64,000 bases of DNA from a virus, in IMG/VR virus record IMGVR_UViG_3300034082_004296, positions 64,001-128,000 of that record. The stretch is one strand, 5' to 3'. The notes beneath the pieces were generated by a model, which had not been told where the DNA came from, did not search any database, and saw only the letters and a program-made list of their open reading frames with translations. Both the position numbers and the translations under genes were made by a program. Shown one piece after another: positions 1,539 to 10,717 of the stretch (positions are counted from its first letter, which is position 1; each line of letters begins with the position of its first letter).

Positions 1539-3130
1539 TATTTCTTTGCTAATTTTTTTACTTTTAGTGCGTCTAAAAAGTATTTAGGCACGTTTTTATT
1601 TTCTAGGATTTGGTCAAAACACTCGTCTAATATGTAGGTCTCTGCCCAATCGTCATCATTTCTTATTGATCTACCATATGCTTGTAAAAGGTCCACCAGG
1701 GTCTTCCAATTATACCACTCTGGTCGAGTTTCAAGTCTCTTCTTAATCTTTGTACTAACAAGATTAGGAAAAGGTACTTTTAGGATTACTTGAAAACGAG
1801 AAAGTTCGTCTTTTAGATCGACTCCATTAATCATCGATGGTGAGACTAGGACAGTTTCTATTTTTGAAGTAAGGTGATCCTCTAGTGACTTTTCTCTAGT
1901 TATTGAATCATGGAATATTAAACGAACATCTTGAATAGAGTTTTGAATCCACTTACTAAACTCATAATTCGCTGTGTGGATAATACCCTTATGTTCGTGG
2001 TTCTTTTCTAGGATCTTACCAATTATTGGTACTGCTCTAGCAAAAGTCTCCTTCTTATTATAATAGGACATTTTACCGAATCTTACGTAGATTACAGGTC
2101 GAGCTTCAGCTTTAAATGGACAAGGTAATGCAAGATAGGTTGACTCATGGTCCTCAACTCCCATAATAAATGAAAATAACTCTCGATCAAGTAGTGTACC
2201 TGACATTAGGATCACATGGTCATACTGGTCCCAAAATAACTCTTTAAGATAGAGATTTCCCCAAATGGGTTCAACTAAGATTCGGGTCTTGCCATACTGG
2301 TCTAGGTCCTTTTCAAAAGTCCAATTAGTCTTGTAGTTTTCTCGATCGTTGACGAATCTGTTGTATTTACACATTGACTTATCGACGTGATCGGCTTTCT
2401 TAATTAGATCAATCTTTTTTTTCTTAGCTCGGGTTTCCTTAGCTTCCTCCAATAACTCATAGGCTTTTTGCTCAAGTAAGGGAACAAGTATATCTTTAGT
2501 CCAGTCTGAAAGTTCAGTCAAGCTTGAAATATTATCGAGGTCTCGTTCCATCCAATCTTGCCAGACATCTAATATCTTTAAACTGCGTTCAGAATAGGTA
2601 GAGAGGATAAAATCACAAAAGGTCTCCTCAAAAGCATGAGCCTCATCAATTATAAGAAGTTTAGAATTACGCTCAGCCATCATCTCTGGAGAATACATTG
2701 AGTATGCTGTCACTAGATGAAAATTGGCTAGACTTACTGGGCTCTTTAAAAACTTTGATTGTGCGATCTTATGAGGACAGATAGTACAACGCTTTTCATT
2801 TGCTTTATTTATGACTTGAGCATCACCGCAACCCATACCTTGAGTACGACACCAGTAATTGTTCTTGCCCTTAAGATTGGCTGCAAAACCAAAGTCTTTT
2901 ACGTATTGATCTTGTAGGATTTTAGTATTGGTAATAATATCAGTTTTGGCCTTTTTTGAGTGTTCACCTCGATACCACTCAGCAATCATGATCGCGGCAT
3001 ATGATTTTCCAACTCCAGTGGGAGCATCCACCATGATAAATTTCTTTCCATCCTTAATAGAAGACTTTACAAAGTCCAGTATTTGGACCTGTTGAGGTCT
3101 TGGTGAAAACTCAAGAGGGATATCGCTCAT
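1538..3130 (-). CDS. DinG/XPD-family SF2 DNA helicase
   Basis: Walker A APTGVGKS, four-Cys cluster (possible Fe-S), DEAH box, MSGT, GVDLKDE, QAYGRSIRNDDD. Confidence 0.88.
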   Translation of the reverse strand: MSDIPLEFSPRPQQVQILDFVKSSIKDGKKFIMVDAPTGVGKSYAAIMIAEWYRGEHSKKAKTDIITNTKILQDQYVKDFGFAANLKGKNNYWCRTQGMGCGDAQVINKANEKRCTICPHKIAQSKFLKSPVSLANFHLVTAYSMYSPEMMAERNSKLLIIDEAHAFEETFCDFILSTYSERSLKILDVWQDWMERDLDNISSLTELSDWTKDILVPLLEQKAYELLEEAKETRAKKKKIDLIKKADHVDKSMCKYNRFVNDRENYKTNWTFEKDLDQYGKTRILVEPIWGNLYLKELFWDQYDHVILMSGTLLDRELFSFIMGVEDHESTYLALPCPFKAEARPVIYVRFGKMSYYNKKETFARAVPIIGKILEKNHEHKGIIHTANYEFSKWIQNSIQDVRLIFHDSITREKSLEDHLTSKIETVLVSPSMINGVDLKDELSRFQVILKVPFPNLVSTKIKKRLETRPEWYNWKTLVDLLQAYGRSIRNDDDWAETYILDECFDQILENKNVPKYFLDALKVKKLAKK

Positions 3131-3309
3131 GTAGTAGTTTCTAGTTTTATTATTATCTTTTTAATGTCCTGATGAATCTCCCTTATTTCTAAGGCAAGTT
3201 CATTGTTAGAATCAGCCTTTTCCATGGAGGAGGAAACCCGTCGACAACACTCTCTAATTATCGCAAGTTCACGTTTTGAAAGCTTGGGGCCAAGTAGTTT
3301 TCTTAACAT
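3127..3309 (-). CDS. Hypothetical protein (60 aa)
   Basis: Overlaps the helicase start (ATGA coupling); TATAAATAA lies just upstream. Confidence 0.55.
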   Translation of the reverse strand: MLRKLLGPKLSKRELAIIRECCRRVSSSMEKADSNNELALEIREIHQDIKKIIIKLETTT

Positions 3310-3342
3310 CTTTCGTTATTTATACAATTCTATTAATAAAAC

Positions 3343-4143
3343 TCAAAATTGCTCACTGGTTTCAATTTGGATAGGATGATACCACATTCTGCGACCGTTC
3401 TTGTCGGTAAACCAGTGGCCCTTGCCATAACACTTCATCCACTCATCAAAACCGCTAGGTTGGATATCAAATGGATTTTCCCAATCCTTTAATTGACCTC
3501 CTCCAAGAAAGTATGCCTCTCGAGGAAGCCGTTCGCATAGGTCTAGGATAGATGGGTTCATAGTGATTGCGGTACGAGCATCCACAAAAGGATCCTGTGC
3601 TGCATGGAAAACTATCTCAGCTCTAAGATAGTTGCCAATTCCGTTAAAGTATTGCTGGTTCATGAGCACCAGGTGAATCGGCTTATTAAATTCCTTCTTG
3701 CCTAGGTTAGCGAAGATATTCTCCCTAAAAAGCCTAGATTCATGTACTGGACACGGCCCTCTATTTTGGGACCAATCAGTAGCAACATTCCACCTAGCAA
3801 ATCGACGAGTGTCAACCAAGCATAGACTATGCTGATCAACAGTATTGAATTTCATGTGAGTATGTTTTGGTACAGCATCACGGTGACATAGCGCCCAGTG
3901 ACCAGACATGCCCATCGAGCAGCTGATCTTCATAAAGACCTCACCTCCTTGAATTAGGGAGAGCATGAGCTCCTTGCCTCGAGATTCAGCAGTAATACTG
4001 AATATCTGAAGGTCAGTCGGCTGGACTATACCTAGTTTTCGATTCATGGCACTTTCTGAAAAGGAGATTGATGTAAAATTCCTTTCTCTGCAGGCTAGAT
4101 TTATGAAATCCGCCATTATTTTTATCTCTGCAAGTTCTGGCAT
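3343..4143 (-). CDS. Fpg/Nei-family DNA glycosylase, NEIL1-like (zincless finger)
   Basis: N-terminal PE catalytic motif, RGKEL, MGMSG, DTRRF, H2TH motif FNGIGNYLRAEI, C-terminal DKNGRRMWY without four-Cys zinc finger. Confidence 0.92.
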   Translation of the reverse strand: MPELAEIKIMADFINLACRERNFTSISFSESAMNRKLGIVQPTDLQIFSITAESRGKELMLSLIQGGEVFMKISCSMGMSGHWALCHRDAVPKHTHMKFNTVDQHSLCLVDTRRFARWNVATDWSQNRGPCPVHESRLFRENIFANLGKKEFNKPIHLVLMNQQYFNGIGNYLRAEIVFHAAQDPFVDARTAITMNPSILDLCERLPREAYFLGGGQLKDWENPFDIQPSGFDEWMKCYGKGHWFTDKNGRRMWYHPIQIETSEQF

Positions 4144-4178
4144 ATCATTAAGATACTAAAAAAAAATTGACATATTAA

Positions 4179-4187
4179 AATAAATAA
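4179..4187 (+). promoter_or_regulatory. Late promoter motif NATAAATAA
   Basis: 17 nt before ATG 4205. Confidence 0.65.
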
Positions 4188-4204
4188 CTAAAAAAGTATC
4201 TAAC

Positions 4205-6172
4205 ATGTCATATTTGTTAAATTATAAAAATTGGAGAGCACTATATGAAAGCCAAACTAATATTTTTGAAGATGGAGAAGACCCATACGGAGGAGTTGGT
4301 ATGATTGATGATACCAAAATCAAAGATAAAGGCACAGTTGATCCATTTGCAGACATGCCAAAAGAGGGCAAGAAAAGATTAGAGTATTTAGTAAATAAAG
4401 CAGGAGACCTAGATTCACAGGCGATAAAAAAGGCAGGAGCAGCGCCAGCAACTTCACTTCTACCCTACGATGCAATAACTGACTGGATGATTACTGCAGG
4501 TAAGCCTACTACAAGGAGCGATGGAAAAGGAGGATATAAAGATTTTTCACCAGAATGGAAGAAAAGATTTAAAGATAGAGAGCCTTCCATGAAATTAGAA
4601 GACTGTATTCAATGTATGCAGTATTGGAATGGAATAATTGATACGACTAAAACAAAAAAAGAAACTATTGAAATAAACGGTAAACCGTATGATGTTGCAA
4701 ATTATGACACTGCTCGAGTAATTAGACAATTGGATCAATTAAGTAATCTCAAAAAAGTTAAATCTTTAGTAGAAGAGGCATGGAAGGCTAAAGGCATTAT
4801 ATATTTTAATACTGGCTCGCCTTCAGAATATGAGTTTGAAGGAACTAAGTATTCTATTGAGAAAGACAAACAGGTAACATTTGACCCAAATTTAATCGTT
4901 GAAAAGAGTAAGATTTTACTAGAAAAAGCGAAAAAAACATTTGTAAACACTGGAAAAACCAGAAGAAATTCAAAGACTGATATGCTTTCTCCAAACCCCA
5001 ATTCAGATAATGTATGGTTTGATACAGGAGAGGGAGGAAAATATTATTCAAAGAAATCTAGAGATCAAACTGGAAGCTTTTGGCTATGGTATCAAATAAT
5101 ATCGGACGATGCTCAATTTCAAAAGTTATTAGCTAGATTCGATGATCCAACTTATGTGAGGACAGTATTCACAAAAATGACGGAGCAGGATAAGATAAAC
5201 ATAATAAAGGGTATTTCGGACGCTGCACAGAAGAAATTTGAGAAAGGATCAGTCGGAGCAATGGAAGGGATCTATGGCGCTACTTCCATCGTGTGGTGGC
5301 CGGTTGAAGCTAAAGAGACGATGCCAAAAACAACGGTCCTTAAACCAGCTAGTCCAGGAATTGACGTTGAATATGAAAATGAATGGGACTTTTCTTGGCC
5401 GTATGCTAAAGAAGGAGGAGTAGGAAAAGAACTTGCAATGACCTACTTTAAGAGTGATTCAGCAATAATACAAGATGGCAAGGACAAAGAGATAGACAAT
5501 GCAGTCAAGCAAATCATGGCTGAAATTAAGAGCAAAAATGGTACTCTTAAATCATTAAAGTATAGAGTAGTAGCATCGACGAGTGACGAACCTTCTAAAT
5601 ATGCAAGCCCTAATAAAGTAGCCGCAAAATACGATATTGCAAATAATCAACCTTTAGTTAGAGACCGTGCTAAGGTAATCGAAACTGCCCTAACTGCTGC
5701 GATCACTGCGAACGGAATTGATCCGACCCTGGTCACTAAAGACGGCGAAGACCTTACTCCTAATAATATTCTAGACGATGGAAGTGCAAAATACCAAGAG
5801 AAAAAATGGATGCGGCTTGATCATAAGGACCCTAGAGCAACGGCTGCTACTGATGCTGAATATAAAGCACTATTCGCTAAACCTAAACATTCAGGGCTTC
5901 TATTTAATATAGTATATACAACCATTGAAAAGGAAAAGAGTGAACCTACTCCTGAAGAAACGACCGTATCTGATTATGAGGTAGTAGGAGAATGGCTATT
6001 CGAGATCAAGTGGGCAGGCGGAGGAAGCTACAAGAAAAAGAGAAGAAGAACTCACACTAGAAGACCGATGAGGGGAATCCCTTGGGATAAATTGTTTCCG
6101 CCTCTTCCTGCAGGTGGAGGATGGAGCGTCGAAGACTTATGTGACGCATATGGTAGATCAGGACCAGGATAG
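4205..6172 (+). CDS. Late protein with capsid-targeting-like N-terminus and C-terminal OmpA-like domain
   Basis: N-terminus YLLNYKNWRALYES shared with the 6866 ORF; YFKSDSAII...VVASTSDEP...NQPLVRDRAKVI resembles OmpA_C; late motif upstream. Confidence 0.6.
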   Translation: MSYLLNYKNWRALYESQTNIFEDGEDPYGGVGMIDDTKIKDKGTVDPFADMPKEGKKRLEYLVNKAGDLDSQAIKKAGAAPATSLLPYDAITDWMITAGKPTTRSDGKGGYKDFSPEWKKRFKDREPSMKLEDCIQCMQYWNGIIDTTKTKKETIEINGKPYDVANYDTARVIRQLDQLSNLKKVKSLVEEAWKAKGIIYFNTGSPSEYEFEGTKYSIEKDKQVTFDPNLIVEKSKILLEKAKKTFVNTGKTRRNSKTDMLSPNPNSDNVWFDTGEGGKYYSKKSRDQTGSFWLWYQIISDDAQFQKLLARFDDPTYVRTVFTKMTEQDKINIIKGISDAAQKKFEKGSVGAMEGIYGATSIVWWPVEAKETMPKTTVLKPASPGIDVEYENEWDFSWPYAKEGGVGKELAMTYFKSDSAIIQDGKDKEIDNAVKQIMAEIKSKNGTLKSLKYRVVASTSDEPSKYASPNKVAAKYDIANNQPLVRDRAKVIETALTAAITANGIDPTLVTKDGEDLTPNNILDDGSAKYQEKKWMRLDHKDPRATAATDAEYKALFAKPKHSGLLFNIVYTTIEKEKSEPTPEETTVSDYEVVGEWLFEIKWAGGGSYKKKRRRTHTRRPMRGIPWDKLFPPLPAGGGWSVEDLCDAYGRSGPG

Positions 6173-6176
6173 AGGA

Positions 6177-6779
6177 TCACTCTATTCTGTTAGTTAATAA
6201 TAAAGTGGAAGATATTCGATATCTTCCATTTTTGTTTACATAGACCTTTTGATATACTCCACAAAAGGTAGCCTCCTTCTTTAATAGCTTTGAGTTATGA
6301 CCTGGAGACTCGATCCAATAATTTAGGACACACTGTGCAGCTAACTTAGGATCGACTATTTTGGATCCAATATTTTTAAGCCAAAGATCGCCAACTTTTT
6401 GTTTTGTAGGATCCTTAAATACCATTGGTCCAGCATTAAGACAGTTCTCAGCAATCATGCCGCCTGCTCCTAATTTTACGCCAAATCGTTCAACTCTTGT
6501 TTCAGGAGAGACTAGATTTTCAATAAGATGTAGTGAATCATAATTTCGCTCAAAGTGGCCTCCTTCATCGTATATAGACAGGTATTCGCAATGGTGTTCA
6601 CAAGCACGAGTCGCTTTAGAGTCTAGCTTAAGTGGATTGAGCCCATTTTTTTGACGATATTCATTTATGGCATCAAGTAGAAGAGTTGAGAATTCAGCCT
6701 CAGTAGTTAAAAGGTTTTTAGGAACTTGAGAAAAAGTGATCGTAGAGATCAATAGAAGGGTTAATGTTATTAATTTCAT
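6177..6779 (-). CDS. Secreted CAP/SCP-domain protein (start revised to 6779)
   Basis: Signal peptide MKLITLTLLLISTITFSQ; INEYRQKNGLNPL, AENC, YWIESPGHNSKLL CAP motifs. Confidence 0.82.
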   Translation of the reverse strand: MKLITLTLLLISTITFSQVPKNLLTTEAEFSTLLLDAINEYRQKNGLNPLKLDSKATRACEHHCEYLSIYDEGGHFERNYDSLHLIENLVSPETRVERFGVKLGAGGMIAENCLNAGPMVFKDPTKQKVGDLWLKNIGSKIVDPKLAAQCVLNYWIESPGHNSKLLKKEATFCGVYQKVYVNKNGRYRISSTLLLTNRIE

Positions 6780-6837
6780 GGCTCTTACATTTACTGTGGA
6801 TATAGTTATAATACAATAAAAAGAGTCGGTTTTAAAA

Positions 6838-6846
6838 GATAAATAA
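6838..6846 (+). promoter_or_regulatory. Late promoter motif GATAAATAA
   Basis: 19 nt before ATG 6866. Confidence 0.65.
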
Positions 6847-6865
6847 CTAAAAAACTTATTTAAAA

Positions 6866-8410
6866 ATGGGTGGTTATTTATTAAATTATAACAAGTGGAG
6901 AGCTCTATATGAGTCAGCTCAACTAAATGAGGCAATTGAGATACCTGGATTTAATCTTAAACCGGTAGAAAAAGGAAATAAGCTAGTTTCTAGAGTTTCG
7001 TATCCATCACTTGGAATTAATCCAAAATACGATAATGAGCTAAATTCAATCATGACTAAAACAGTCGGTAAGGAGACAATTCCTAAGTTATTTGTAGTAA
7101 ATGGTAGTGAAGTTGATTCTCAGGCTGAATATCGAAAAATATTTACTGCGCTAGTTTATGGAGTGATCCAATATTTTGAAGATGATACATTAAAGGATAA
7201 GATCGATGATATTGCTCCACAACTTAAATTCACAACAACGATTTCAGGTAAAGTACAATTGTATGGTTCAAGTAGTGGAAGGATTAGTACACAAGGACAA
7301 ATTGTGGAACCGAATACTGGTGGGGCAGTCTATATTTCAAACACAGCTGACACTAAAGAGTCATCAGTAATCGGGATATGTAAATATATCAATGGATTTA
7401 ATTTACAGAATTGGATGACAGGTAATTTCCTACAGATAGATCCAACGAAGATTCTTGATCAAAACAATGTAACTGATTTAACTGGAGCGATGAGAGAGGC
7501 ATATGTTGAAGAACGAGGATTCTTACGATTAGTCAGTCCAGCAAGTGCAAGCATTACTGCTGGAGCAAGGGGTACTGAGACTGAAACTGTTCAAGGTGCA
7601 CAGGCGCAAACTGGTAATGCAGAGATTGCATTTACTGCTGGAAAATCAGATATTGATGATAAAGGAGTTAAAGTTGATGCAAATCACCCTAAAGTAAAAG
7701 AGATTGGTGACAAGATCATAGGGTATTTAGGAAACAATGGTGTAATTGATTCAATGACGTTAACCTCATCTGCAAGTCCAGAATATGGATCGATCCAAAA
7801 CGTTGCAGGCTGGGAAAAATCTTATCCTAAGGGGACTACTGGAACAGCTGATCCTGGTGCAGGAGCGGATGACGCTGGTAAAAACATGAAGCTTGCATAC
7901 GATCGAGGAGTCGTATTTAGTAATGCGTTATACGCTTATTTAGGAGGACATGTAAAACAAAATGCAATTGCCGTTTCTTGGAAGATCTCAACTGATGCTC
8001 CAGGAGGAGGAAAGAATATCACTTACTCAGTTGCTACTAAAAGTGAATCTCCACAAACAATCACAAAAACGACTTACCAAGGAGCAAAAGTATCTGTCAA
8101 AAATGAAGATAACTCAATCGTAGTCTATAAGATTACGTATGATGCGTCAGCAATTGCTAAAAATAAAGATGGACTTTTCACAAAAGAACGAATTGATTAT
8201 AATAAATTAAAAGTAGGTGATAAGATCATAGTATACGCTAAGGACATGAAGACTAAACTTGGAAAAGATGAAGATGAACCTGTCACAGTAAGTAAGGTTG
8301 AAGATAATAATGTTTACGTAAATTATAAAGAAAACACCGATATCTTGATACCTAAAGATAGATACATTAAACAAGTAGGAAAAGCTGAAAAGCAAGAAGC
8401 TGAAATCTAA
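6866..8410 (+). CDS. Late protein with capsid-targeting-like N-terminus and OmpA-like domain
   Basis: YLLNYNKWRALYES N-terminus; FTAGKSDI...SSASPEYG...NMKLAYDRG resembles the Bacteroidota OmpA-like 'ASPEG..N..LA..RA' pattern. Confidence 0.6.
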   Translation: MGGYLLNYNKWRALYESAQLNEAIEIPGFNLKPVEKGNKLVSRVSYPSLGINPKYDNELNSIMTKTVGKETIPKLFVVNGSEVDSQAEYRKIFTALVYGVIQYFEDDTLKDKIDDIAPQLKFTTTISGKVQLYGSSSGRISTQGQIVEPNTGGAVYISNTADTKESSVIGICKYINGFNLQNWMTGNFLQIDPTKILDQNNVTDLTGAMREAYVEERGFLRLVSPASASITAGARGTETETVQGAQAQTGNAEIAFTAGKSDIDDKGVKVDANHPKVKEIGDKIIGYLGNNGVIDSMTLTSSASPEYGSIQNVAGWEKSYPKGTTGTADPGAGADDAGKNMKLAYDRGVVFSNALYAYLGGHVKQNAIAVSWKISTDAPGGGKNITYSVATKSESPQTITKTTYQGAKVSVKNEDNSIVVYKITYDASAIAKNKDGLFTKERIDYNKLKVGDKIIVYAKDMKTKLGKDEDEPVTVSKVEDNNVYVNYKENTDILIPKDRYIKQVGKAEKQEAEI

Positions 8411-8431
8411 TCTTGACTTTAGATATTTGAT

Positions 8432-8458
8432 AAGGGAGTCTAACGACTCCCTTTTTTT
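8432..8458 (+). terminator. Intrinsic terminator
   Basis: AAGGGAGTC-TAAC-GACTCCCTT followed by a T run, downstream of the 6866 ORF. Confidence 0.8.
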
Positions 8459-8991
8459 GGCATTATATATACGTACCCATTAAATGTGGTCTTGCTCTTA
8501 TCTAGTGAATGAAATGTAGCATCAAACTTGATAGATTTATTTTTACGATCAATCAATATGATCGAAACAATAGTAGCTGCTTCGTCGTTGGGTCGAGAGA
8601 TAGCTGCCTCATGGGTAGAAGAGTGAATCCAACCCTGAACAGCTTTCTGTGCAAGCGCTTCAAGATCGATCTCACCGCGATCACTAATGATATTTGTAAA
8701 AAATGAACCTGACGTTTCGTATCTATATAAACACTCAGCATTGCTCCAATAACCTAGGCTATCTGAATGTCTCTGCATGGGCCGATTAAAATTTCCATAT
8801 GCTACTCTGGTACAAAACTTTCGCATCAGGGAGTCCTCAAATGCCATAAATGGAGAGAGGCTTTGTGTGATTCTATACTCATTAATCTTTTTCCAGATCA
8901 AACTATCAAGCTTAGTAGATTCGATTCTTTCTACTTGTGAAATCGAAGAGAATGAAAGTAATGCAAAAAATATTATTGCAATTGTTTTCAT
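8440..8991 (-). CDS. Secreted CAP/SCP-domain protein (paralogue of 6177-6779)
   Basis: Signal peptide MKTIAIIFFALLSFSSISQ; INEYRITQSLSP, NAEC, AVQGWIHSSTHEAAI. Confidence 0.75.
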   Translation of the reverse strand: MKTIAIIFFALLSFSSISQVERIESTKLDSLIWKKINEYRITQSLSPFMAFEDSLMRKFCTRVAYGNFNRPMQRHSDSLGYWSNAECLYRYETSGSFFTNIISDRGEIDLEALAQKAVQGWIHSSTHEAAISRPNDEAATIVSIILIDRKNKSIKFDATFHSLDKSKTTFNGYVYIMPKKGSR

Positions 8992-9046
8992 GGCTTTAAA
9001 TTTAATTGGTTATAGCTATAATACAAAAAATTATCGAAATAAAAAA

Positions 9047-9055
9047 GATAAATAA
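9047..9055 (+). promoter_or_regulatory. Late promoter motif GATAAATAA
   Basis: 17 nt before ATG 9073. Confidence 0.65.
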
Positions 9056-9072
9056 TAAAAAATTAAATTGTA

Positions 9073-9306
9073 ATGGCAAATCCAGTTATGAACTACAACC
9101 AGTTTATGTCAGCATTCAAAAAAGCTGAAGCGGGATACCGTGGAAAAGCTAATGTTGCGGCTAACGATAGATCAGGTTCTATGAAGATCAATCAAGGTTT
9201 AGTTGAAGGTCCAGTTAAAGGAAAAGGAACTCCTCAACTTGATAAGTATACTAAACAATACATGACTACTGCAAAGAACAAGAGTGTAGTAGGTAAGAAG
9301 AAGTAA
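9073..9306 (+). CDS. Small basic late protein, putative head-internal protein
   Basis: VMNYNQFM N-terminus, Lys-rich, GATAAATAA upstream. Confidence 0.6.
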   Translation: MANPVMNYNQFMSAFKKAEAGYRGKANVAANDRSGSMKINQGLVEGPVKGKGTPQLDKYTKQYMTTAKNKSVVGKKK

Positions 9307-9326: not shown

Positions 9327-9584
9327 ATGAATAGAGCTATCATGAGATTTGAGCAATATGCTCTACTTGAAAAGAAGGGCGACCTTAAGAAGCTAGTAGG
9401 TAAGGACGAGGACGAAGAGCTTACGATAAATGATGCCAAGAAGATTGGGGTCAAGGTTGCTAACATGGAAGGAGAGGACAAGAAGAAATACGTTGGTATC
9501 ATCAACTTTTTAGGGGCTTCATGTAACATCTATAACGAGCTTTGGAAGAATTATAAACGAACGAGAGATCGTAAAAAAGACTAA
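9327..9584 (+). CDS. Small late protein, putative head-internal protein
   Basis: IMRFEQYALLE N-terminal motif; coupled to the next gene. Confidence 0.6.
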   Translation: MNRAIMRFEQYALLEKKGDLKKLVGKDEDEELTINDAKKIGVKVANMEGEDKKKYVGIINFLGASCNIYNELWKNYKRTRDRKKD

Positions 9585-10717
9585 TGGATAAAGTATTTGA
9601 AAAGGCGTATTCTGATGAGGCTAGCTCAAAGGATGGAGGTTTCATCTTTCAAGCAATCCTAAACTATGACCTGTCCTGGTCAATAGTCAATGGCGAGACT
9701 GCACTCGATCAAAAAAATATCCAAGGTTGGCTTAAGCAAGTAGATGTTTTTCCAGATATGCGGTTTGAAGAGGGCCATGCCACTCTTACCTATGTTATCT
9801 TAAGTGAAGTAAATCTACTTAAAAGAAAGTTTGAGCTTGCGAGCGAGGCAATCAAGAGATTACTTAATCCAGATTATGCTCGAGAAATGGACGGTTTACC
9901 TGCTGAAGTGACACCGGAAGAAGAGACACCAAAACCGGTCGAGACCGACATAACTGACGACGATTGGAACAATCTCTTACCATCTGGTCCAAATCCACCA
10001 TTGGGATTACCTGAGCCACAAAAGAGAATTGGTCAAGGCCAAGTAGCTTTGCCTTCGGGCCCATCTGCTCCACTAGGTCTTCCGCCAGCAACTTCTGAAT
10101 CAAGAGTAAATGAGGTTCTTTTTACTACAAAGTTGACTTCTGCTCAAATCAAGGCGATTAATGACAAGTACTTTAGCAACACTCACTATGAGGTAAGGTT
10201 CACAGTAGATCGAATGGTCCTACGTGAGGTCTCAACCAGTGGACTTGATACGGGTTCTCCCAATGTGACACTTAAACTTTCTACAGGTATGGTGGACACG
10301 CTTGATGGAAAAGCAATCAATAGCTGGGACGGATTTAAGGTAAAGGTATCGGGTAAAAACACTCTAATTAATAATGAGTCGCTGTTGATAGACAACACGA
10401 CTGAACCCAAGATCTCAGAAATAATGGTATATGACCCTATTGAAAACGTGAATGAACTTATCTTTAGGACTATCCTACCTTCTTTAGTATTGGAATTTAA
10501 GGGAGACCGTGTACAAATAGATAACTATTCAAACCGCTCTTCACAAGTATCTATACGATCTAACATTGATTTTGAAAACTTATTTAATATTGAGGAGGCA
10601 CCCGCCTCTGAGATAGTAGACACAGAAGAGGGAGAGGAACCTGAAGAGGAGAATACTGAAGAAACTCAGGAACCAACTACACCCGAACAAAATATTGCTC
10701 CAAAGCAAAATAAATAA
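9584..10717 (+). CDS. Hypothetical late/virion-associated protein
   Basis: 377-aa ORF with Pro-rich linker and acidic tail, in a late operon before the tail tube. Confidence 0.6.
   Translation: MDKVFEKAYSDEASSKDGGFIFQAILNYDLSWSIVNGETALDQKNIQGWLKQVDVFPDMRFEEGHATLTYVILSEVNLLKRKFELASEAIKRLLNPDYAREMDGLPAEVTPEEETPKPVETDITDDDWNNLLPSGPNPPLGLPEPQKRIGQGQVALPSGPSAPLGLPPATSESRVNEVLFTTKLTSAQIKAINDKYFSNTHYEVRFTVDRMVLREVSTSGLDTGSPNVTLKLSTGMVDTLDGKAINSWDGFKVKVSGKNTLINNESLLIDNTTEPKISEIMVYDPIENVNELIFRTILPSLVLEFKGDRVQIDNYSNRSSQVSIRSNIDFENLFNIEEAPASEIVDTEEGEEPEEENTEETQEPTTPEQNIAPKQNK
10709..10717 (+). promoter_or_regulatory. Late promoter motif AATAAATAA
   Basis: 19 nt before the tail tube ATG. Confidence 0.65.

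Follow-up and report, generated by a model that had tools for sequence, protein, structure and literature searches.

The window analysed here is a 64,000-nucleotide (nt) stretch, bases 64001–128000 of a single 176,210-bp virus contig (IMG/VR record IMGVR_UViG_3300034082_004296; G+C ~36%), and our subject is a two-gene unit that it carries twice in tandem. The source is a divergent T4-like freshwater phage whose hosts are probably Flavobacteriales. Each copy of the unit sets a large plus-strand gene tail to tail with a minus-strand gene for its own signal-peptide CAP-domain protein: fam1 (4205–6172, 655 residues) converges with CAP1 (6177–6779, 200 residues counted from the Met of MKLITL), and fam2 (6866–8410, 514 residues) converges with CAP2 (8440–8991, 183 residues). 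An earlier note on this DNA had described such a tandem repeat, spanning 4205–6779 and 6866–8991, and all four open reading frames (ORFs) were found at these positions. Just 4 nt, and no terminator, separate the fam1 and CAP1 stops (window 6172–6177); late transcription of fam1 would therefore run antisense through CAP1, and could act as a timing switch. One relative (locus L004) has these genes overlapping by 4 nt. A terminator-like hairpin with a T-run (8432–8453, plus strand) lies 3′ of fam2 and overlaps the final CAP2 codons.

The large genes and their partners are preceded by different conserved elements. A 16-nt motif, ATAAATAAYTAAAAAA, lies 10–12 nt upstream of fam1 and fam2 and fits a T4-like late promoter. 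The exact 16-mer occurs in the genome only at 4180 and 6839; the fam1 copy, ATAAATAACTAAAAAA (4180–4195, plus strand), is 10 nt from the start of the gene. A looser form of the motif has 19 plus-strand and three minus-strand matches genome-wide, one of them directly 5′ of the ORF for a gp21-like protease. Upstream of both CAP genes stands TTGTATTATA[A/G]CTATA, identical at 15 of 16 positions, as the earlier note's remark on a shared, near-identical 16-mer had it. The 14-nt core of this element, GTATWATARCTATA, has three matches in the window against 0.19 expected; exact copies number four in the genome, each ~22 nt 5′ of a signal-peptide gene, and their carriers are the four secreted-partner genes only. 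A Bacteroidota −33/−7 promoter consensus was considered for the region upstream of the CAP genes and dropped, the conserved box resembling a TATAAT/TATTAT −10 element instead.

Together the two elements form a divergent regulatory cassette. At 6780–6865, the minus-strand box TTGTATTATAACTATA (6801–6816) serves CAP1 and the plus-strand late motif (6839–6854) serves fam2; a second copy at 8992–9072 holds the minus-strand box TTGTATTATAGCTATA (9011–9026) and, at 9049, a late-type motif, which is followed by a small tagged ORF beginning at 9073. Near-identical cassettes flank all four modules of this kind in the genome: the two just given and two more within G000:16–18.3 kb. The divergent, promoter-sharing genes were also considered as the conserved unit and rejected, because relatives keep the convergent pair.

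The only stretch that BLASTP finds in common between fam1 and fam2 is an N-terminal 14-mer, YLLNY..WRALYES, with 12 of 14 residues identical (YLLNYKNWRALYES in fam1, encoded at 4211–4252; YLLNYNKWRALYES in fam2, encoded at 6875–6916; both plus strand). Both large proteins do start with it, as previously noted, and the 176-kb genome has just these two copies of the motif. A recent DNA duplication was rejected as its source: the copies differ at synonymous codon sites, so that conservation is at the level of the peptide, not the DNA.

In T4, internal proteins enter the prohead core via an N-terminal capsid-targeting sequence of ~10 residues, in which residues 4 and 7 act in targeting and residues 8 and 10 in processing, and gp21 cleavage follows L/I-x-E (PMC9026906). 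Ten such residues suffice for packaging (PMC3012670). The 14-mer is built in the same way: aromatics Y and W stand three residues apart and are followed by L-Y-E (residues 13–15 of fam1 and 14–16 of fam2), which in fam1 gives a putative prohead-protease site, L-Y-E|S. All of 17 fam1 homologues keep the Glu (E15), and in 28 fam2 homologues (E16) it is nearly invariant. A gp21-type prohead protease (Pfam Peptidase_S77, PF03420) is encoded at G000:55503–55952, scoring 44.3 bits, above the cut-off. When the pattern was generalized to aromatic-xx-aromatic...h-x-E within the first 28 residues, 22 of 207 ORFs carried it, compared with ~2% for each comparable internal window; about 17 of the 22 look genuine.

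The version of the tag varies by phage lineage, and different cargo proteins of one phage carry one version. In L004, fam1, a 509-residue Pfam OmpA protein, and two ~700-residue proteins share VL(S/D)FN.. or ISLFDDF-type leaders; L013, L014, and L017 have each a version of their own. Uniformity within a phage and change between lineages are what one would expect if each phage's scaffold reads the tag as an address. The tag thus fits a capsid-targeting sequence of T4 type that ends in a cut site for gp21. The capsid signal proposed in the earlier note is supported by the L/I-x-E end of the tag, the encoded gp21-type protease, and the tag's presence on unrelated proteins.

Two small late ORFs just beyond the second unit (9073–9306 and 9327–9584) have weaker tag-like N termini, VMNYNQFM and IMRFEQYALLE, the latter in this phage. 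They are 92–95% conserved in a close relative and may encode further capsid cargo.

Behind the tag, fam1 comprises a hypervariable middle (~50–300), an OmpA-like domain (~388–571), an Arg/Lys-rich tail (~606–625), and a conserved C-terminal DLC[DC]AYG; fam2 comprises an N-domain (~30–235), an OmpA-like domain (245–393), and a Tudor/KOW-like C-terminal barrel (~440–510). AlphaFold2 models built on family alignments had a mean predicted local distance difference test (pLDDT) score of 80 for fam2, with 80–95 in its N-domain, and of 66 for fam1, whose domains were nonetheless well modelled. The predicted fold was assigned by superposition. In fam2, residues 245–393 (encoded at 7598–8044, plus strand) superpose on TagL (5m38) with VIA Z 10.3 and a root-mean-square deviation (rmsd) of 2.6 Å over 104 of 114 residues; all 50 of the 50 listed structural matches are OmpA-like peptidoglycan-binding domains (OmpA, MotB, Pal, TagL, DotK, YfiB, and PorE types). 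An unbiased search of 48,161 chains with fam2 returned OmpA-like domains in its top 31 rows and then Tudor/KOW barrels for residues 440–510. In fam1, residues 388–571 (encoded at 5366–5917, plus strand) superpose on the Salmonella OmpA C-domain (4rha) with VIA Z 8.9 and rmsd 3.7 over 123 of 127 residues. The same unbiased search put the Acinetobacter OmpA-like domain 3td3 first for fam1 (Z 8.7), with PurM-N-type sandwiches interspersed from Z 8 down; the Foldseek probability was 1.00.

Profile–profile comparison (hhalign) adds that the two families share exactly this domain, ~100–150 residues (91.5% probability, E 8.6e-7). The columns invariant across both read A-S...N..L...R, where the Arg is R488 in fam1 and R347 in fam2. 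Outside the domain, the fam2 barrel has a weak ProQ_C-like match (PF24203); this barrel and the Arg/Lys-rich tail of fam1 could plausibly make nucleic-acid contacts, as for cargo embedded in DNA. The fam2 N-domain (residues 30–235) and the N-terminal half of fam1 gave no fold match, which says little since neither was ever folded alone. Neither large protein matches a PHROG, and fam1, with 17 homologue clusters, matches no Pfam family either; both are small metagenomic families. Searches of Pfam, PHROGs, and PDB sequences with the large proteins and with the isolated domains yielded nothing useful, and the ESM Atlas gave weak OmpA leads only.

Of the partners, CAP1 combines a signal peptide with a CAP domain recognized by Pfam (PF00188, 1.1e-10, 42.8 bits against a cut-off of 21.1; also phrog_16914). 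CAP2, which also has a signal peptide, is more diverged: it falls below the Pfam threshold, but the profile of its family (46 clusters) aligns with CAP1 at 93.8% probability (E 1.8e-7, 153 columns). The two have in common an INEYR helix, an ECL motif, and WIxSxxH, and the CAP2 WxNSPxH motif matches the Borrelia CAP protein BB0689. H75, E86, and H127 are invariant in the CAP2 family and E111 is conserved at ≥90%, a set whose likeness to the His/Glu/Glu/His tetrad of CAP proteins was judged by spacing only; the third tetrad position of CAP1 is not Glu. The earlier note had named effector–immunity, superinfection exclusion, and ejection aid as possible roles of the cargo and its exported CAP protein. 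Export and CAP identity hold for both partners, by Pfam for CAP1 and by profile alignment for CAP2. The CAP2 family is also a stand-alone chromosomal gene of Flavobacteriales, however, and is therefore not a fold dedicated to immunity.

These chromosomal homologues (30–61% identity) were found in 17 contigs of Flavobacteriales metagenome-assembled genomes (L031–L047), among genes usual for a bacterial chromosome, such as that for IMP dehydrogenase. They come from Crocinitomicaceae, Lishizhenia, and other Flavobacteriales (another is L019), sometimes as tandem pairs. No fam2 gene lies beside the bacterial CAP2 loci, and five such genomes lack fam2 altogether. Strong CAP2 matches were present in 4 of 151 sampled Flavobacteriales genomes; with so sporadic a distribution, the phage partner belongs to a sporadic family of host periplasmic proteins.

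Relatives of the phage, which come from freshwater metagenomes, keep the pairs together. A search of IMG/VR with fam1 returned two loci only and a metagenome scan with fam2 seven. In every locus recovered, fam1 and CAP1 stand tail to tail, with stops 2–4 nt apart or overlapping. These loci represent at least three neighbourhoods: that of the window (L003, L010, and L020), a different one (L001), and another (L004). When IMG/VR was searched with the CAP2 profile, the convergent neighbour was a fam2 homologue in 11 of 11 viral loci. The fam2–CAP2 arrangement also recurs in L012, L013, L014, L017, and L018, down to 27–30% identity and with a different tag type; the L017 fam2 is detectable by profile only (97.9%) and has a wholly different leader, yet is still paired with CAP2. 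One phage (L001/L023) holds the two pairs ~50 kb apart, each intact, and cognate pairing (fam1 with CAP1, fam2 with CAP2) is never mixed in ~20 loci. The synteny check that the earlier note had proposed thus finds both gene pairs together in distant relatives, and the pair moves as a unit. In a distant clade (L028–L030, ~2200–6400), a single CAP2 stands between two fam2 paralogues, one divergent from it and the other convergent, with ILPF..WF.VYE-type tags.

Divergence is unevenly distributed across the locus, which is flanked by minus-strand genes for a T4-type topoisomerase II large subunit, a helicase, an Fpg/Nei-type glycosylase, and, further off, thymidylate synthase. Between the window and L003, the helicase is 97% and the glycosylase 93% identical in amino-acid sequence. 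Synonymous divergence (dS) is 0.33 in these two flanking genes and 0.5–1.9 across the module block, which is therefore mosaic. Change is concentrated in the N-domains behind the tag: residues 51–300 of fam1 are 34% identical with a ratio of nonsynonymous to synonymous divergence (dN/dS) of 0.43, whereas identity in the OmpA-like domain of fam2 is 90%. The fast-changing portion of the cargo thus shows no co-variation with CAP; any contact between cargo and CAP would involve the conserved domain or a target common to both. The same mosaic block includes a 377-residue late ORF (9584–10717) with dS 1.9 against a close relative and dN/dS 0.07.

The layout is also occupied by unrelated proteins. Outside the window, at G000:C1:16122–18298 (L016:2123–4298), a tagged 195-residue protein converges with a secreted 147-residue protein and a tagged 188-residue protein with a secreted 139-residue protein, under a promoter cassette almost the same as that at 6780–6865. 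The secreted proteins are 32% identical to each other, and the tagged ones share only MSNILNFKNWL; searches of IMG/VR and of two relatives turned up no homologues of the secreted proteins. Between the glycosylase and fam2, relatives can carry, in place of fam1–CAP1, a tagged 228-residue protein convergent with a secreted 150-residue protein, a tagged 125–137-residue protein convergent with a rhomboid protease (PF01694), or both (L018:7265–9684; L021, L022, and L025 at ~6200–7450). The replacement partners being likewise secreted or rhomboid, the partner is always an envelope protein. L004 (1553–7394) carries two tandem tagged ~700-residue proteins with long Gly/Ala-rich hydrophobic cores, which may be membrane-active cargo. 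They are followed by the tagged 509-residue protein, which has a genuine Pfam OmpA domain and converges with a 143-residue secreted protein. The 509-residue protein was considered as a relative of fam2, to which it has no significant match, and its secreted neighbour is not detectably CAP2-like.

We propose that the window holds two copies of a mobile two-gene module in which a late capsid cargo is paired with an early periplasmic partner that acts in superinfection exclusion, and we give this reading as a whole a probability of about 35%. The cargo would be loaded into the prohead core under guidance of the tag, trimmed after Glu15/16, and ejected with the DNA; given a tag with a prohead-protease site, loading and trimming of fam1 and fam2 are probable. 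Behind the tag, the cargo would present a fast-evolving N-domain, a conserved OmpA-like domain, and a C terminus that likely binds nucleic acid. Our best guess is that it acts in the envelope during entry, by anchoring to the wall or opening it. From a σ70-like −10 box, the CAP gene would be expressed soon after infection, and its Sec-exported product would arrive early in the infected cell's periplasm, which we consider likely. That cargo and CAP are functionally coupled we hold with somewhat less assurance, though still as the better bet. The last step is tentative and argues from analogy with gp5–Spackle and pb5–Llp: when further phages attack, resident CAP might bind their cargo or mask its envelope target. 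Extended to the other occupants of the layout, the proposal becomes doubtful: portable modules, each an ejected envelope effector with its own early neutralizer (CAP, a small secreted protein, or a rhomboid), would decide the entry of kin phages as a self/non-self system.

Several observations weigh against this proposal. The domain that points to the envelope is OmpA-like by predicted fold and not by sequence: Pfam OmpA (PF00691) matches neither the whole proteins nor, even at E 10, the excised domains, and a domain profile run against 1.84 billion representatives recovered 87 proteins, the phage family only, with no canonical OmpA among those checked. Where OmpA has GxTD, both families read A-S, which apparently puts Ser at the diaminopimelate-binding Asp and makes peptidoglycan binding uncertain. 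Of the OmpA_C-like domain named in the earlier note, then, the fold stands as a prediction in both proteins, but membership in the Pfam family does not, and we file the domain as an OmpA-like fold that might bind peptidoglycan. T4 internal proteins, moreover, go to the cytoplasm and not to the periplasm (PMC9026906). The pointers to early CAP expression are only the opposite strand and the −10-like box. CAP partners are much more conserved than cargo between close relatives (window against L003: CAP1 86–87% and CAP2 89–90% against fam1 50–56% and fam2 71%; overall 86–89% against 50–71%), a pattern at odds with a tight mutual arms race. Homologues of CAP2 stand alone in bacterial chromosomes, so the fold has a partner-independent role. 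Finally, the locus matched none of 50,697 GenBank phage records as DNA or protein, and there is no cultured relative.

Two alternatives keep the capsid cargo and reassign the CAP protein. The genes may merely be neighbours in a hyperplastic zone: shared bidirectional promoter/terminator cassettes would carry late cargo genes and early envelope genes of host origin through repeated shuffling, adjacency would follow from the cassettes, and CAP would modify the host envelope. The near-identical divergent cassettes at all four modules, the mosaic exchange implied by dS of 0.5–1.9 in the block against 0.33 in its flanks, and the stand-alone bacterial homologues of CAP2 are all consistent with this. 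Relatives, however, keep the convergent pair and not the pair that shares a cassette, and cognate partners stay unmixed through ~50 kb of relocation and a change of tag type, so we regard adjacency without interaction as rather unlikely. Alternatively, a coupled pair could serve the phage's own infection: early CAP would remove, cap, or process the OmpA-like cargo left at the entry site, and wall and membrane would be resealed for the latent period. This draws on the same evidence of linkage, localization, and timing as the superinfection-exclusion proposal, and two findings suit it particularly, the rhomboid protease partner in relatives, which suggests processing of a membrane-inserted protein, and the His/Glu/Glu/His set of the CAP2 family, which resembles the metal-binding CAP tetrad. 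We judge it unlikely, as it leaves the fast diversification of the cargo N-domains unexplained and no precedent for clean-up proteins was found in the literature searched.

The tag itself might be misread. If it is not a capsid address, fam1 and fam2 could be cytoplasmic late lysis accessories that reach the wall after holin action, with CAP a periplasmic inhibitor against enzyme released by neighbouring cells. Like endolysins, both proteins combine a wall-binding-type fold with the absence of a signal peptide, and the large conserved N-domain of fam2, for which no fold was assigned, could be catalytic. The tag pattern, however, is common to ~17 unrelated proteins, co-varies with phage lineage, and ends in a protease motif in a phage that encodes a gp21-type protease; Pfam and PHROG searches returned no hydrolase signature. 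These points leave the lysis-accessory interpretation quite improbable. A different link to lysis comes from T4, in which lysis inhibition is believed to be set off when secondarily adsorbing phages release a substance into the periplasm (PMC6832632). By analogy, periplasmic CAP could sense capsid contents released by superinfecting phages and feed lysis timing, as proposed for the T4 RI antiholin. The geometry of a cargo and a periplasmic partner fits that model, but the idea rests purely on the analogy: the surroundings of the modules revealed no link to a holin or antiholin, and no membrane anchor or holin-binding feature was recognized in CAP. We consider it very unlikely.

Most of what is known of internal proteins packaged in capsids comes from T4, in which they counter restriction in the cytoplasm. 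In the present phage a wall-binding-type fold sits on the cargo, and every such cargo gene travels with a gene for an exported partner. If the members of a pair interact, ejected capsid proteins would act in the periplasm, and phages would police one another via linked cargo/anti-cargo pairs. To our knowledge, Bacteroidota phages are almost unstudied for entry and superinfection exclusion; the proposal, if true, would offer a testable handle on both, and a first function for bacterial CAP-domain proteins. The lineage-specific tags also supply a practical rule by which capsid cargo could be predicted in T4-like phages that have not been cultured.

The module combines known principles, capsid-targeting tags and early periplasmic exclusion proteins, in an arrangement that we have not found described in the literature. 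Its parts have recognizable counterparts. With the OmpA_C-like domains of OmpA, Pal, MotB, TagL, and PorE, the cargo domain shares a predicted β-α-β-α-β-β fold over the whole reference domain, the N..L...R helix, and the invariant Arg. It differs from them in lacking a match at the level of hidden Markov models, in reading A-S for T-D, and in insertions of 20–35 residues between strand 2 and the Arg helix; its family, moreover, is small (87 representatives), confined to phages, and without an export signal. The partners resemble bacterial CAP/SCP/YkwD-like proteins (PF00188; Borrelia BB0689, PDB 4D53) in having a signal peptide, a single CAP domain, WxxSxxH, and the His/Glu set. Strict linkage to a tagged OmpA-like gene sets the phage copies apart, as does the position of CAP2 below the Pfam threshold.

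As a system, the tagged genes are most like those for the internal proteins of T4 and other T-even phages (IPI, IPII, IPIII, and Alt), with a short N-terminal tag on unrelated late proteins, a gp21-type protease, plastic gene content, and, in the case of Alt, cargo of comparable size. In sequence, however, the proteins are unrelated to any T4 internal protein; the tag runs to 14 residues and differs in sequence from that of T4, the predicted OmpA-like fold points to the envelope rather than the cytoplasm, and every cargo gene is accompanied by a dedicated gene for an exported partner, for which the internal-protein genes of T4 have no equivalent. For the partners, the nearest precedents are exclusion proteins, although Pfam and PHROG searches gave no homology to Spackle or Llp. 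T4 Spackle (gp61.3) is an early signal-peptide protein of the periplasm that neutralizes the wall-directed gp5 tail lysozyme of incoming virions (PMC7677548). CAP would likewise be an early periplasmic partner of a late virion protein. Spackle, however, is a 75-residue helical bundle rather than a CAP protein, its target is a tail-spike enzyme rather than capsid cargo, and its gene is not adjacent to that of gp5 as the paired genes here are; nor does the module include a lysozyme domain. In T5, the gene for Llp, an early envelope protein that masks the host target and so gives superinfection exclusion, adjoins that for pb5 (PMC9586334). This system, like the Cor lipoproteins of T1 and phi80, shares with the module a late virion gene beside the gene for an early envelope protein; Llp, a small lipoprotein, has an outer-membrane receptor as its target, whereas the module pairs a soluble CAP protein with a putative virion protein that is tagged capsid cargo rather than a receptor-binding protein.

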